Assembly: GCA_964406165.1 (NCBI GenBank)
Contig: CAYOQQ010000003.1
Span: 1 to 59,568, forward strand
DNA length: 59,568 bases
Source of the DNA: an uncultured Candidatus Saccharibacteria bacterium
GTDB taxonomy: Bacteria; Patescibacteriota; Minisyncoccia; Phycocordibacterales; UBA5272
Direction of reading: 5' to 3'
Positions 2,836-19,791 of this stretch are shown here, piece after piece. Numbering within the stretch: the stretch's first letter is position 1; the number at the start of each line of letters is the position of its first letter. Both the position numbers and the translations under genes were made by a program. Under the pieces are notes generated by a model. That model was given only the letters and a program-made list of their open reading frames with translations. It did not search any database and had not been told where the DNA came from.

Positions 2836-2923
2836 GGTATCTATTAATAGATAGGGTAATACTACAATAAAGAGGGGTAAAAGGCAAATAGTCTCAATAA
2901 TACTTTTTTGTGATTATTACAAT

Positions 2924-2960
2924 AAAAAAACCTCGACAGTCTTTCGATGTTGTCGAGGTG
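2924..2960 (-). terminator. Intrinsic terminator of the 60-aa ORF
   Basis: Minus strand reads CCTCGACA-loop-TGTCGAGG followed by a T7 run. Confidence 0.8.
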
Positions 2961-3006
2961 TATTGTCTATCTGGTGCACCTCTTACAGGGCTTATACCAA
3001 GATAGA

Positions 3007-3189
3007 TTATTCAGGCTTACCAGGTTCTTTAACTTCTTGTTGTTTCTCGGGTGGCTTGGTCCAATTTGGGTTGATTCGAAATGCTCCAGAGCGATTCATA
3101 TGACTTATCGCAACTCGATTTCTTTCTGCAATGATTTGCAACCTTCTTTTCTCATCTTCATCATCGGTACGTTTTGACGATGTGTTCAT
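3007..3189 (-). CDS. Small charged protein (60 aa), unknown function
   Basis: GGAGGG SD 5-6 nt before the ATG. Own TTGATA-N16-TATATT promoter and own terminator. Confidence 0.6.
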   Translation of the reverse strand: MNTSSKRTDDEDEKRRLQIIAERNRVAISHMNRSGAFRINPNWTKPPEKQQEVKEPGKPE

Positions 3190-3233
3190 ATTGATCCCTC
3201 CATGTAGTTAAAACAGGGGCTCCCTGATAGTTA

Positions 3234-3261
3234 AATATACATTATTTTTTTCGATTATCAA
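3234..3261 (-). promoter_or_regulatory. Sigma70-type promoter TTGATA-N16-TATATT for the 60-aa ORF
   Basis: The reverse complement of 3234-3261 gives the -35 and -10 hexamers with a 16-nt spacer. Confidence 0.6.
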
Positions 3262-3324
3262 ATTACTATTTAGTTATTATAAAATAATTATTAAGACTTG
3301 TTGGGTGTGTGGTTATAAAAGTTG

Positions 3325-3390
3325 ATGTCGAAATGTGCTCGTTAGCGTCCAGGACGTGACTTTGCTAAGTCAGACATCATTTTGCTCGGC
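3325..3390 (+). repeat. Palindromic unit / micro-ORF family, copy 1 (32-nt insert, in-frame TAG at codon 7)
   Basis: ATGTCGAAATGTGCTC + 32 nt + GACATCATTTTGCTCGGC. The termini match copies 2 and 3. Confidence 0.7.
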
Positions 3391-3400
3391 TATGTTATCT

Positions 3401-3448
3401 ATGTCGAAATGTGCTCATTTCGACATCATTTTGCTCGGCGCAAAATGA
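3401..3448 (+). repeat. Palindromic unit / micro-ORF family, copy 2 (minimal form; could encode MSKCAHFDIILLGAK)
   Basis: ATGTCGAAAT-GTGCTC-ATTTCGACAT is a 10-bp perfect stem. It is followed by the CATTTTGC-TCGGC-GCAAAATG hairpin. Confidence 0.7.
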
Positions 3449-3449
3449 G

Positions 3450-3478
3450 AAAACCGCGCGACTCACGTCGGGCGGTTT
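3450..3478. terminator. GC-rich hairpin shared by convergent transcripts (unit copies on +, ORF132 transcript on -)
   Basis: AAAACCGCGCG-ACTCACGT-CGGGCGGTTT. On the minus strand a T-rich tract follows it. Confidence 0.6.
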
Positions 3479-3479
3479 G

Positions 3480-3672
3480 GATGGTTCCCTTTTCCCCAAA
3501 GCTAAGCTTTGGTCGGGGCGAGGTGATCCTCTAGCGGTCCATCAGAAGTGACAGGGCCTTTCGCCTATCCTTCTTACCTCTACGCCGGATTGTCTGTCCG
3601 GCCTATTTACCTGTAATAACTCATGTGCAGGGTCTCCTGGGTTGTGGCATTGTTGTAAAGGCGGCTGACAGC
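3480..3672 (-). ncRNA. GC-rich structured 3' segment of the ORF132 transcript (unclassified)
   Basis: Several stable hairpins on the minus strand: GCCGGA-CAGACAA-TCCGGC, CCAAAGC-TTA-GCTTTGG and a GGC-GAAAG-GCC loop. No convincing ORF. It ends at the terminator at 3450-3478. Confidence 0.4.
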
Positions 3673-3810
3673 TTAGCGCTGCCAGGGCTTCGGTGCGGTG
3701 CGAGCAATAGCTCGCACCGTCTTGTGCCGCCCACGCAGAGTGTTCTGCGGGGGCTTGCACTTCGGGATAGGGTAGCGCGGAATGAATTCCGGCGGATCCC
3801 AAACAAACAT
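3673..3810 (-). CDS. Candidate 45-aa basic, Pro-rich micro-protein. An alternative 65-aa form starts at 3870 in a TAATG overlap with ORF132.
   Basis: AAAGGAGAGAC precedes the ATG at 3810. The longer frame begins with the ATG that overlaps the ORF132 stop codon. Confidence 0.3.
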   Translation of the reverse strand: MFVWDPPEFIPRYPIPKCKPPQNTLRGRHKTVRAIARTAPKPWQR

Positions 3811-3869
3811 GTCTCTCCTTTCGAATACCCTAAGAATGTCTAGGGGCCGAATGTGGAAGATTAGCAACA

Positions 3870-4268
3870 TTAGAATCTGACATTTACACGACGACGGTCC
3901 TTGTACTTGTCATTTCGGCCATGACGAGAGTATGACCGTTCTTCTTGGTGCACAAGTTTGGCACTGTAGAGATGTCCACGAAGGATGTACTCAGGGCAGT
4001 CTGCCGGCTTTCGAAAAGCTTCGCGCAAACCAGAGGACTGTTGGGTCCACTCATCGCGAGCACGAGGCTCGTCGATGCAGGTCTTGCGACGCGGCTTTGC
4101 CGGTTCGAGGACTTCTGGTGTCCACGCGATTTCTCCGTGGGTCTCCTTACGTACCTTGTAGAGGTCCGTGCCAGCCATGTTGTTCAAGGTTTCCTTGAGC
4201 GTGCTGGTGAGGGGGACATATCGTGCCGAGACACGAACCGGAATTCCGTTGAAACTTTGCAAACGCAT
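3870..4268 (-). CDS. GC-rich 132-aa protein, unknown function
   Basis: AAGGAGAAAAG precedes the ATG at 4268. Third-codon positions are G/C-biased, unlike neighbouring genes. The tracked ORF start at 4328 overlaps the promoter, so the start was trimmed. Confidence 0.65.
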   Translation of the reverse strand: MRLQSFNGIPVRVSARYVPLTSTLKETLNNMAGTDLYKVRKETHGEIAWTPEVLEPAKPRRKTCIDEPRARDEWTQQSSGLREAFRKPADCPEYILRGHLYSAKLVHQEERSYSRHGRNDKYKDRRRVNVRF

Positions 4269-4319
4269 CTTTTCTCCTTGGGTTAAATTGGTATTATGGG
4301 AAACAACTAAACTGTATAT

Positions 4320-4347
4320 ATTATACACGAAATATATATTTTGTCAA
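4320..4347 (-). promoter_or_regulatory. Near-consensus sigma70 promoter TTGACA-N16-TATAAT driving ORF132
   Basis: The reverse complement of 4320-4347 gives both consensus hexamers. Confidence 0.75.
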
Positions 4348-4454
4348 GTAATATTCTTTACAAACTTGACAAATAGTGTATTAAAATATGACCTTTGATA
4401 AGGGTTAAAATGCTTTATTTATATGTGTTTTCGAGGATTTATACAAAATAGTTT

Positions 4455-4598
4455 ATGTCGAAATTTGCTAGTTCTTATGTCTCTAGACGAGACATTGCGA
4501 AGCGAATTGAAGCTTTTTTGTTAAGGAACGCTTCGCTTACAAAAAACTTCAATTCGGACATCATTTTGCTCGGCGCAAAAAGAAAACCGCCATCATGA
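4455..4598 (+). repeat. Palindromic unit / micro-ORF family, copy 3 (long insert; open 47-codon frame MSKFASS...SDIILLGAKRKPPS)
   Basis: ATGTCGAAATTTGCTA ... GACATCATTTTGCTCGGCGCAAAAAG. The termini are shared with copies 1 and 2. TATACA lies 9 nt upstream of the ATG. Confidence 0.6.
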
Positions 4599-4623
4599 TT
4601 ATTCATCATTTTGGCGGTGTTTT
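4583..4623. terminator. Hairpin shared by unit copy 3 (+) and the 49-aa ORF (-)
   Basis: ACCGCCA..ATGAT-GAATA-ATCAT..TGGCGGT, with T-rich tracts on both sides. Confidence 0.65.
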
Positions 4624-4639
4624 ACTCCCTTTGCTGAGA

Positions 4640-4789
4640 TCAGTGGAGTTGCATCTCGGGAACTTCCACGGCATGGACGATGTCGTCCATGCCGATGCTG
4701 ATGCCTTGCTCGACGTTGCCGTCAAACATGGCATCAAGAACATTGTGCTCTTCGAGTGATACTGCGGCCTGGAACAGTGCTTCGTTCAC
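4640..4789 (-). CDS. Candidate 49-aa acidic micro-protein (GTG start)
   Basis: AGAAAGG lies 5 nt before the GTG. The frame is GC-rich, has its own TTGATA-N16-TATAAT promoter and is followed by a terminator. It is below the ORF-track size cut-off. Confidence 0.35.
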   Translation of the reverse strand: MNEALFQAAVSLEEHNVLDAMFDGNVEQGISIGMDDIVHAVEVPEMQLH

Positions 4790-4845
4790 GATTGCCTTTC
4801 TGCCCTAGTGGGCAATGATGCTTCTCAACATGAGGAGCAATGTAT

Positions 4846-4873
4846 ATTATACATTATTTATGTAATTTATCAA
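4846..4873 (-). promoter_or_regulatory. Sigma70-type promoter TTGATA-N16-TATAAT for the 49-aa ORF
   Basis: Read from the reverse complement of 4846-4873. Confidence 0.6.
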
Positions 4874-5006: not shown

Positions 5007-5651
5007 ATGGTCAGCATGATAATCACTCACTACGGACGACAGCATTTTAAATTACAAGTTGGCGATTTAACATTCGCAATCAATCCAGTTTCTAAGGAAG
5101 GAAAAGGGAAGTTAAGTAAATATGGGGCTGATGTGACTCTTGTCACTACGAATCATCCTGACTATAACGGAGTGGAGCAGACAGAAATGGGAAGTAAGAC
5201 ACCATTTGTTATTCGTGGGGCAGGGGAATATGAGGTGCAGAATATTTTTATTAAAGGATTTGCAACTGAAGTTACTCTTAAAGAGAACAAGAAAGAGAAG
5301 ACATACCAAAACACAAGTTATGTATTTGTGATTGATGGTATCCGTGTGACATTCTTAGGAGCACTTTCAGAGATGCTTAAGCCAGAGCATAAAGAAGTTA
5401 TCGATGAGACAGATGTGCTCTTCGTACCTGTAGGTGAAGATGGATTCTTACTTAATGCATATGATGCGTACAAACTTTCAGTTGCTCTTGAGCCAAAGCT
5501 TATTATTCCGATGGATTATAATGAGCAGTCACTTCCTATCTTTTTGAAAGAAGTAGGGAATGAAAAAGTAGACCCAGTAGAGAAGTTAACGATTAAGAAG
5601 AAGGATATTGAGGGGAAATTGGGTGAGGTTGTTCTCTTCCACGAGCTCTAA
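5007..5651 (+). CDS. MBL-fold metal-dependent hydrolase (UPF0173-like). The probable start is the ATG at 5016.
   Basis: N-terminal IITHYGRQHFKLQ..LTFAINP resembles the beta-lactamase-fold hydrolase family. TAGAAT at 5003-5008 lies 7 nt before the ATG at 5016. Confidence 0.6.
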   Translation: MVSMIITHYGRQHFKLQVGDLTFAINPVSKEGKGKLSKYGADVTLVTTNHPDYNGVEQTEMGSKTPFVIRGAGEYEVQNIFIKGFATEVTLKENKKEKTYQNTSYVFVIDGIRVTFLGALSEMLKPEHKEVIDETDVLFVPVGEDGFLLNAYDAYKLSVALEPKLIIPMDYNEQSLPIFLKEVGNEKVDPVEKLTIKKKDIEGKLGEVVLFHEL

Positions 5652-19720: not shown

Positions 19721-19791
19721 GGGCCTATAGTTTAGTGGCAGAACAACGGCCTCCAAATCCGTTGGTCGAGGTTCGATTCCTCGTGGGCCCG
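19721..19791 (+). tRNA. trnW: tRNA-Trp (anticodon CCA)
   Basis: Cloverleaf folded by hand: acceptor GGGCCTA/TGGGCCC, anticodon loop CTCCAAA, T arm CGAGG-TTCGATT-CCTCG, discriminator G. Confidence 0.85.

Follow-up and report, generated by a model that had tools for sequence, protein, structure and literature searches.

A lineage-specific pseudoknotted RNA behind a predicted mini-ORF at the 3' end of a small-protein cassette in a Candidatus Saccharibacteria genus

The window analysed here, that is, the whole 59,568-nt stretch of DNA, is contig C3 of an assembly from an uncultured Candidatus Saccharibacteria bacterium (G000; 985 kb in 52 contigs, 88% complete). It carries a cassette in which the open reading frame (ORF) of a small basic protein, ORF132, is followed by a second small gene (ORF45), a predicted mini-ORF and a structured RNA core of helices P1 to P5, a pseudoknot and an intrinsic terminator, all on the minus strand (Table 1). 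We hold with high confidence that this anatomy defines a structured and lineage-specific RNA family. The first-pass annotation had described the stretch past the ORF132 stop codon as a 3' extension of the transcript rich in guanine plus cytosine (G+C) and in hairpins, with two competing translational readings in its first half and the architecture of a protein gene followed in cis by a large structured RNA. All the helices that it named, both of its ATG codons and the terminator were recovered at their places, and the structured RNA stands for the last ~155 nt, which are conserved and non-coding; the first ~200 nt, by contrast, hold ORF45.

The G+C content is 0.53-0.59 over positions 3401-3900 (200-nt windows) against 0.399 genome-wide, and a 436-nt stretch has a computed fold energy of -171.2 kcal/mol, against a mean of -134.4 (standard deviation 6.76) for 100 dinucleotide shuffles. 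Since z is -5.44 and 0 of 100 shuffles fold as well, the stability of the fold is beyond chance, and the description of the stretch as G+C-rich and hairpin-dense is borne out. One explanation is that of an ordinary stretch, either coding throughout or a G+C-rich 3' untranslated region (UTR) with hairpins as by-products: G+C-rich sequence generally folds well, the first ~200 nt are indeed coding, and one of the named stems, of 9 bp, lies within ORF45. However, the shuffles are 37 kcal/mol worse than the natural sequence, and the core of the window copy has stops in all three forward frames (2, 1 and 5). The variable columns among five class I sequences (the classes are given below) fall 21/23/26 by position mod 3, so that triplet periodicity is absent, and the indels of 1, 2, 3, 8 and 10 nt are not confined to multiples of three. 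Among the copies in G000, G006 and G075 the last ~160 nt have a mean column identity of 82%, against only 34-43% protein identity for the ORF132 homologues upstream. A conserved ORF within the core, in the G006/G031 frame beginning MSRLR..., was considered and rejected, as it is closed after 3 codons in the window. The loop and 3' strand of P4 (GGAUCACCUC) were likewise noted to resemble the 3' end of 16S rRNA, a likeness that is not kept in G006, G031 or G008 and was set aside.

The RNA belongs to an undescribed family, absent from Rfam 15 and with no literature description found. At the gathering score, Rfam 15 matched the whole window only at a tRNA (19721-19791); at E values up to 10 it gave 6 weak matches over 3200-4700, none reaching half the gathering score, the best of which (E = 0.099) is to a microRNA model and lies outside the structured RNA. 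In the collection of papers searched, no description of any structured RNA from Saccharibacteria was found, supplementary motif lists being outside the scope of that search.

Table 1. Features of the cassette and its surroundings, with positions in the window (class and genome names as in the text)
Feature	Position	Strand	Details
MBL-fold gene	5007-5651		divergent to the cassette; Lactamase_B_3, E = 1e-24 (Pfam)
ORF49 (hotspot unit 1)	4789..4640	minus
ORF132 + ORF45 + structured RNA (hotspot unit 2)		minus
Sigma-70-type promoter of the ORF132 cassette, TTGACA-16 nt-TATAAT	4320..4347	minus	12/12 consensus positions
ORF132, small basic protein	4268..3870	minus	AAGGAG before ATG at 4268; stop TAA 3872-3870
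Small hairpin CCCUA...UAGGG, ORF132-ORF45 spacer	3828..3845	minus	present in the computed fold; no counterpart in the other genomes read
ORF45, 45 residues, MFVWDPPEF...TAPKPWQR	3810..3673	minus	Shine-Dalgarno GGAG 3818-3815; stop TAA 3675-3673
9-bp stem GGUGCGAGC-UAUU-GCUCGCACC (DNA GGTGCGAGC-TATT-GCTCGCACC)	3718-3697	minus	inside the ORF45 coding sequence, residues VRAIART
Hairpin CUGGCAGC-GCUAA-GCUGUCAG across the ORF45 stop	3665..3685	minus	present in the computed fold; kept in G006
Mini-ORF AUG AGU UAU UAC AGG UAA (predicted MSYYR, then stop)	3624-3607	minus	behind CCAGGAGACCCUGCAC; GGAG 3637-3634, 9 nt before ATG; stop 4 nt from P1
Structured RNA core	3602-3450	minus	~155 nt; P1 to P5, pseudoknot, intrinsic terminator
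P1 hairpin GCCGGA-CAGACAA-UCCGGC	3602-3584	minus	4/6 pairs change on both sides in class I + G029; 4/6 in class II
P2 long-range helix, UAG-A-GGU (3582-3576) with ACC-G-CUA (3538-3532)	3532..3582	minus	4/6 pairs covary; 97% of cells pair
P3 hairpin GAAGGAUAGG / CCCUGUC-A-CUUC, cap CGAAAGG	3573-3545	minus	96.6% of cells pair; 2/10 pairs covary
Pseudoknot GAUGG (3543-3539) with CCAUC (3484-3480)	3480..3543	minus	crosses P2; 100% of cells pair; 3/5 covary
P4 hairpin GAGG-AUCA-CCUC	3520..3531	minus	100% of cells pair, little variation; absent in G029 and G024
P5a (CCC/GGG) closing P5 (CCAAAGC-UUA-GCUUUGG at 3512-3496), then conserved purine run GGAAAAGGGAA	3487..3517	minus
Intrinsic terminator AAACCGCCCGAC-GUGA-GUCGCGCGGUUU + U-run UUUUCUCAUUUU	3478-3447 (12-bp stem 3478-3451)	minus	93% of cells pair, 6/12 pairs covary, 6 genomes
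Palindromic repeat copies	3317-3343, 3368-3451, 4447-4473, 4552-4586		further copies in G000 at C1:80150-80270 and on C9, C11, C19 and C35
ORF60 (hotspot unit 3)	3189..3007	minus	own promoter
rpsA promoter + leader, conserved	2716-2875	minus	TTGTAGTATTAC, palindrome TCTATTAATAGA, long hairpin UCUGGC...CCAGA, terminator-like hairpin before ATG at 2716

The fold was worked out from three copies and then followed through the genus. By blastn the 3' stretch was found in 3 of the 53 genomes of the genus (G000, G006 and G075); among 400 other genomes of the order the same search gave just 21-32-nt terminator-like pieces, in 7 of them. RNAalifold on the three copies proposed P2 with four compensatory pairs, and the pseudoknot was added by hand to its proposal as a fifth helix. 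With the pseudoknot included, 7 pairs change on both sides among the three sequences, against a shuffle mean of 2.7 (0 of 500 shuffles reach 7) and 0-1 in slid controls. A covariance model built from these three sequences with the pseudoknot left out (R1) detected further copies among the 53 genomes, two of them strong (G031, 141 bits; G008, 135 bits) and three weaker (G029, 42.7 bits; G062, 30.5 bits; G030, 24 bits). A second model (R2) was built from what we call class II; it scores class I at 37-53 bits, so the two classes are homologous, and it picks up a minimal variant, richer in A+T, in G024 (51.8 bits). In all, the two model searches and a reading of every match, with 30 hotspot loci motif-scanned and ~18 read, place the module in 14 of the 53 genomes of this single Candidatus Saccharibacteria genus: class I in G000, G006, G075, G031 and G008; an intermediate form in G029; class II in G062, G071, G030, G074, G072, G032 and G069; and the minimal variant in G024. 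Across 150 genomes of the order outside the genus, R1 gave 5 matches of 20-26 bits, all of which turned out on reading to be terminators only, and R2 gave 3 matches of 24-27 bits, which on reading proved to be chance likenesses to a terminator or an A-rich stretch. Candidates set aside within the genus were the R2 matches in G064 and G018, which on reading cover only a terminator or a Shine-Dalgarno site; a metagenome scan with a two-block core pattern returned 1 stretch, a chance match in eukaryote-like DNA. With the orphan G+C-rich motifs that comparative genomics has brought to light between the genes of A+T-rich genomes (e.g. PMC5737381) the module shares covariation support, a narrow lineage range and a genome of ~40% G+C; it differs from them in being outside Rfam 15 and tied to a mini-ORF and one hotspot of a genus of Saccharibacteria, which belong to the candidate phyla radiation (CPR).

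In the topology P1 stands first, and the long-range helix P2 then surrounds P3 together with the pseudoknot 5' strand; the hairpins P4 and P5 follow, and the terminator, identified by eye and from the computed fold (a simple terminator scanner did not list it), begins 1 nt past the pseudoknot 3' strand. In the alignment of class I with G029 (A8, 6 sequences, fitted to the model structure except at the pseudoknot), 94.8% of 306 cells pair and 26 of 53 pairs change on both sides, whereas slid controls give 1-3 such pairs and not one of 500 shuffles equals the alignment on any of the five measures. P5, whose stem is longer in G006, contributes 5 covarying pairs of 7. The support for the pseudoknot is not favoured by the fitting, because this helix lay outside model R1; its variants are GAUGG/CCAUC, GAUGA/UCAUC and GACAG/CUGUC. 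Class II has the same topology, with P1, then P2 around a hairpin and the pseudoknot 5' strand, one or two hairpins (among them an invariant GGUC-A7-GACC), the pseudoknot 3' strand and the terminator. For this class a plain MAFFT alignment of 7 sequences was used (A11), with 25 pairs taken from P1, P2, P5 and the pseudoknot. MAFFT misregisters P3, P4 and the terminator, which were left out; P2 of G072 is shifted by one column, and P1 of G069 is also off. In A11, 90.8% of cells pair; 12 pairs show changes on both sides (0-3 in slid controls), and 0 of 500 shuffles do as well on four of the five measures (62 of 500 for pair types). The 7-bp class II pseudoknot is 100% paired, with 4 covarying pairs, in the forms GAUUAGA/UCUAAUC, GGUUAGA/UCUAACC, GAUCAGA/UCUGAUC and GAUCAAG/CUUGAUC. 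Base pairs are thus conserved through compensatory change and the same fold recurs in a second sequence class, and for positions 3602-3450 the ordinary reading is already contradicted; for the stretch at large we consider it highly improbable.

Just 5' of P1, 13 of the 14 RNA-bearing loci have a mini-ORF (by eye, as are the counts of its features that follow). It has 2-5 codons in 12 of the 14 loci and 16 codons in one more. The predicted peptides are MSYYR in the window, MTRCR (G006), MRLRR (G031), MTYHR (G008), MSRC (G029), MTWYR (G062), MCRR (G030), MTWIR (G074), MLR (G072), MMQRI (G032), (M)S from a TTG start (G069) and MNFRR (G024). The final codon of the short versions is an Arg codon (AGA, AGG or CGA) in 9 of 12, and 9 of these 12 loci have a gap of exactly 4 nt from stop to P1. 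The real cassette genes share the ribosome binding context, AACCAAGGAGA.

The module has the classical layout of a leader-peptide attenuator, a short ORF with its Shine-Dalgarno site being followed by a structured RNA and an intrinsic terminator, and it might accordingly be a ribosome-dependent attenuator or a riboswitch, in which translation of the mini-ORF or a ligand sets the terminator and hence the read-through of the strong promoter into what lies downstream, often rpsA. With the stop 4 nt from P1, a terminating ribosome would have to melt this helix; the pseudoknot 3' strand adjoins the terminator; and a gap of 20-50 nt separates the terminator from the promoter and leader of rpsA downstream in G062, G071 and G024. 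In the 88%-complete G000 no Rho was found over the curated cut-off (the sole match, at C3:56355-56723, scores 24 bits), so that termination control would rest on intrinsic terminators. However, the gene downstream varies: it is ORF60 with its own promoter in the window, an mTERF-like gene in G075 and a secreted-protein gene in G008, and in G031 and G029 the neighbour is convergent. Moreover, rpsA has its own conserved promoter and leader, RNA-less cassettes keep a homologous terminator directly past the ORF, and no antiterminator pairing is kept in both classes (by eye). One candidate antiterminator, ACCGC of the P2 3' strand with GCGGU of the terminator, was rejected, being present in class I only, without a class II counterpart (by eye). 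The likeness to leader-peptide attenuators and riboswitches therefore extends to the short ORF with its Shine-Dalgarno site, the covarying aptamer-like fold and the intrinsic terminator, but the module sits at the 3' end of an operon instead of in a 5' leader, without a conserved downstream gene or antiterminator; there is no match to an Rfam riboswitch and no competing pairing common to both classes (by eye). We regard this explanation as unlikely.

Turning to the proteins, by sequence comparison ORF45 is a real small gene, and the statement of the first-pass annotation that no long credible ORF follows ORF132 was too strong. Three intact homologues, all directly past the main ORF and with the common ending PW(Q/K)R, are present in G030 (54 residues, ending APAPWQR), G069 (55 residues, AAAPWQR) and G018 (52 residues, APPPWKR), and a large protein collection holds two near relatives of 91% and 84% identity. 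For the last Arg the window has the codon CGC and G030 the codon AGG, a difference that points to selection on the ORF45 protein. Of the supposedly competing translational readings both ATG codons exist, one internal at 3810-3808 behind AAAGGAGAGAC and the other at 3870-3868 in a TAATG overlap with the ORF132 stop, but they are in the same frame and amount to two possible starts of one gene. The start at 3810 is favoured over the upstream ATG, because it has a Shine-Dalgarno site and is where the distant homologues start (MT(D/N)W...); for one of the near relatives the gene call begins at the upstream ATG in the overlap with the ORF132 stop, which indicates that the longer frame is open in a close strain. 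The 9-bp stem, formerly counted as part of the structured RNA, falls inside this gene. It persists in G006, where one mismatch and three compensatory pairs are seen (by eye), and in G018 with 7 bp, and it is absent from the ORF45 homologues of G030 and G069. ORF45 accompanies only 3 of the 14 RNA loci, and G018 has it without the RNA core. The stretch 3740-3869 is missing from G006 and G075 in the alignment. At the G006 locus (L008 1462-1512), 16 more in-frame codons past the TAA of the ORF132 homologue end in ...RPWQR and a stop, like the ORF45 C-terminus, and are either an ORF45 remnant or a read-through extension.

ORF132 belongs to a rare, fast-evolving family, with 4 matches among 5.8 billion clusters and 16 representatives (E up to 0.001) in a profile search of 1.84 billion proteins. 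Its best-conserved part is the C-terminal motif GRNDKYKDRR, in the family form ..GR(N/K)xxYKDRR... It had been called small and unrecognised, and so it is: neither ORF132 nor ORF45 matches any Pfam family, the comparison of ORF132 with PHROGs gave nothing below E = 0.29, an AlphaFold2 model from a 7-sequence alignment has a mean predicted local distance difference test score of 56 with a single helix and mostly disordered prediction, and the best ESM Atlas structure score, 0.83, is below the lead threshold.

That a protein gene is followed in cis by a structured RNA had suggested an RNA-guided or RNA-regulated pair, and the RNA could be the partner of the basic proteins of the cassette, whether of ORF132 with its arginine-rich C-terminus or of ORF45, as an autoregulatory operator within the mRNA, a small ribonucleoprotein or an antitoxin-like RNA. 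In 13 of the 14 loci the RNA does come after an ORF132-family member, whose basic C-terminal motif is its best-conserved part, and ORF132 is predicted to be mostly disordered, as are many RNA-binding tails. However, at least four cassettes (G009, G022, G035 and G064) have the protein without the RNA, the terminator coming straight after the stop; in G024 the promoter, mini-ORF, RNA and terminator are kept while the main ORF is down to a remnant of 17 codons; the G008 homologue is frameshifted; and ORF45 and the RNA are found apart as described above. Since protein and RNA occur apart, each is a module separable from the other; this counts against an obligate pairing of the two and weakens the earlier suggestion, and an RNA-guided pair is unlikely. 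In addition, the RNA is far more conserved than the proteins, a better fit to a conserved cellular partner, and the 3' stretch has no tandem repeats of the type III antitoxin style, nor the cassette a nuclease or other Pfam domain. The omega RNA of TnpB/IscB is similar in that a structured RNA lies directly 3' of a same-strand protein gene; unlike those nucleases, the 132-residue ORF132 has no RuvC, HNH or other Pfam domain and no confident fold, and its protein and RNA are separable. Type III toxin-antitoxin systems (ToxIN) differ in that here 3445-3870 has no direct repeats, the RNA is downstream of the protein, and the two occur apart. We judge a partnership with the cassette proteins to be quite unlikely.

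As covariation supports its fold in two sequence classes, and as it persists where the neighbouring protein gene has decayed, the RNA is very likely functional. We propose, at somewhat less than even odds for the explanation as a whole and at a probability of roughly one in three (0.35) for the stabiliser mechanism, that it is a stable 3'-terminal RNA, capped by ribosomes and resistant to nucleases. The coding part of the operon mRNA would be cut, and the module would persist as an RNA at the 3' end of the transcript. Ribosomes on the strong site of the mini-ORF would halt the 5'-to-3' exonuclease RNase J at the 5' edge, and a ribosome terminating 4 nt from P1 would leave no naked RNA between itself and the fold; the P1-P2-pseudoknot fold would be a second barrier to RNase J, and the terminator hairpin a barrier to 3' exonucleases. 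Both RNase J (475 bits) and RNase Y (543 bits) are found in G000 above the curated cut-offs. The surviving RNA of ~200 nt could stabilise the operon message in cis; because the conserved fold is elaborate, it would more likely bind a conserved cellular partner or a small molecule, independently of the cassette proteins. The elaborate fold, together with the retention of the RNA where the protein gene has decayed, argues for a function of its own in binding or catalysis, and against stabilisation alone.

Such protection has precedents at 5' ends. In the locus LEE4 of enterohaemorrhagic Escherichia coli (EHEC), a mini-ORF's ribosome binding site reportedly protects a processed transcript (Lodato et al. 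2012). In Bacillus subtilis, whose decay relies on these enzymes too, RNase J1 is blocked on the hbs mRNA by ribosomes that initiate at a strong Shine-Dalgarno site (PMC5737220), and the ermC ribosome-stall sequence is described as a transferable 5' stabiliser (PMC3997798). The Saccharibacteria module resembles these stabilisers in having a strong Shine-Dalgarno site at its 5' edge, whether or not a very short ORF comes with it, in a host with RNase Y and RNase J; it would differ in that they protect a downstream coding sequence, whereas the RNA protected here would be non-coding, pseudoknotted and closed by a terminator. Some small RNAs (sRNAs), such as CpxQ and SroC, derive from 3' UTRs and share the terminator of the parent mRNA. 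Like them, the module lies past the last stop codon, uses the mRNA's own terminator and is better conserved than the upstream gene; the known ones, however, are short, of simple fold, dependent on Hfq or ProQ and equipped with a single-stranded seed, whereas here ~155 nt form five helices and a pseudoknot behind a predicted mini-ORF of their own.

Several points weigh against the proposal of a ribosome-capped stable RNA. All 14 sequences are related and from one genus, and the covariation counts, which ignore kinship, overstate the number of independent events; those of A8 come, as stated, from an alignment fitted to the model. The mini-ORF is uneven: that of G024 is without a Shine-Dalgarno site, its ATG overlapping the stop of the decayed upstream ORF; in G071 the stop is lost and the 16-codon frame passes through P1; and G075 has none, the main ORF stopping ~25 nt before P2 and P1 being degenerate. 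The letters conserved around the end of the mini-ORF (AGAUGAAU) might form a motif of the RNA instead of being codons. Simple stabilisers consist of plain hairpins, and a five-helix pseudoknotted fold with invariant junction nucleotides seems too elaborate for that task, which suggests ligand or protein binding, or catalysis. Finally, the stretch recurs in sequencing runs from wastewater, activated-sludge, bioreactor and riverine sources, including 4 RNA libraries from one study, but the evidence from these libraries consists of assembled contigs that cover the stretch piecewise and also run across the terminator, and contigs cannot show a transcript, its ends or levels, or a processed species.

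A bolder reading makes the RNA a 'ribosome-gated' non-coding RNA of a new class, in which a ribosome that terminates on the mini-ORF is held exactly where a pseudoknotted domain, a sensor or a catalyst acting in trans, begins. The folding or activity of the RNA would then report or exploit the state of translation, for example by sensing the supply of Arg-tRNA or release factor, or peptidyl-tRNA drop-off as on minigenes, and it would act in the symbiont or even on the host bacterium instead of being a passive mRNA end. We consider this rather doubtful.

The cassette lies in a hotspot between a divergent metallo-beta-lactamase-fold (MBL-fold) gene, detected in 51 of the 53 genomes of the genus, and rpsA, and the identical promoter sequence is present at the same hotspot in further genomes of the genus. 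In the window the hotspot (2930-4873, minus strand) comprises three units that are independent of one another, and in every one of them a small G+C-rich ORF stands between a promoter and a terminator. The hotspot content differs in each genome read, and the RNA class does not track the similarity of the MBL gene among hotspots; this pattern suggests exchange or very rapid turnover. When contigs from 3 RNA runs and 1 DNA run were compared with the window (e.g. contigs spanning 3210-3635 and 2840-3589), several were seen to break or diverge at 3629-3635, the boundary between ORF45 and the mini-ORF, one fitting only at 3629 and above and one ending at 3635; this may be a weak hint that some strains have another module downstream. 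Directly past their terminators the cassettes are flanked by a palindromic repeat, GTCGAAA-n-AGCA-n-TTTCGAC, which often comes after GCAAAATGATGTC. It occurs at ~8 loci in G000 and at the same hotspot in G006 and G009, and might serve as an operator or a site of recombination, or be a small repeat element.

The leader of rpsA also recurs, in G009, G022, G035, G062, G071, G074, G024 and G064, and without a match to any Rfam family; it is a candidate S1 autoregulatory leader, and the rpsA start is probably the ATG at 2716 and not the GTG at 2736. Elsewhere in G000 (40% G+C), many near-consensus promoters precede ORFs of 50-62% G+C with strong terminators (e.g. C13:25953, C14:18272 and C22:633), which look like a compositionally distinct and apparently highly expressed class of accessory genes. 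At C1:79814-80120 a consensus promoter precedes ~300 nt in which no ORF is convincing; a terminator follows, as do three copies of the palindromic repeat, and the stretch is a candidate for a further non-coding RNA.

To our knowledge, almost no regulatory RNAs have been described from Saccharibacteria and other CPR bacteria, whose genomes of ~1 Mb leave little room for idle sequence. The hypervariable MBL-fold/rpsA hotspot may track strain-level adaptation in wastewater Saccharibacteria. The architecture is unusual: for a predicted tiny ORF with its stop fixed 4 nt from the first helix of a structured RNA, the only precedents are 5' stabilisers and attenuators, and none is at the 3' end of an operon. 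If the stabiliser reading is true, the module would be a compact and portable RNA-stabilising device, usable in hosts that have RNase J and RNase Y; should the RNA prove to be catalytic or to bind a ligand, it would represent a new class.

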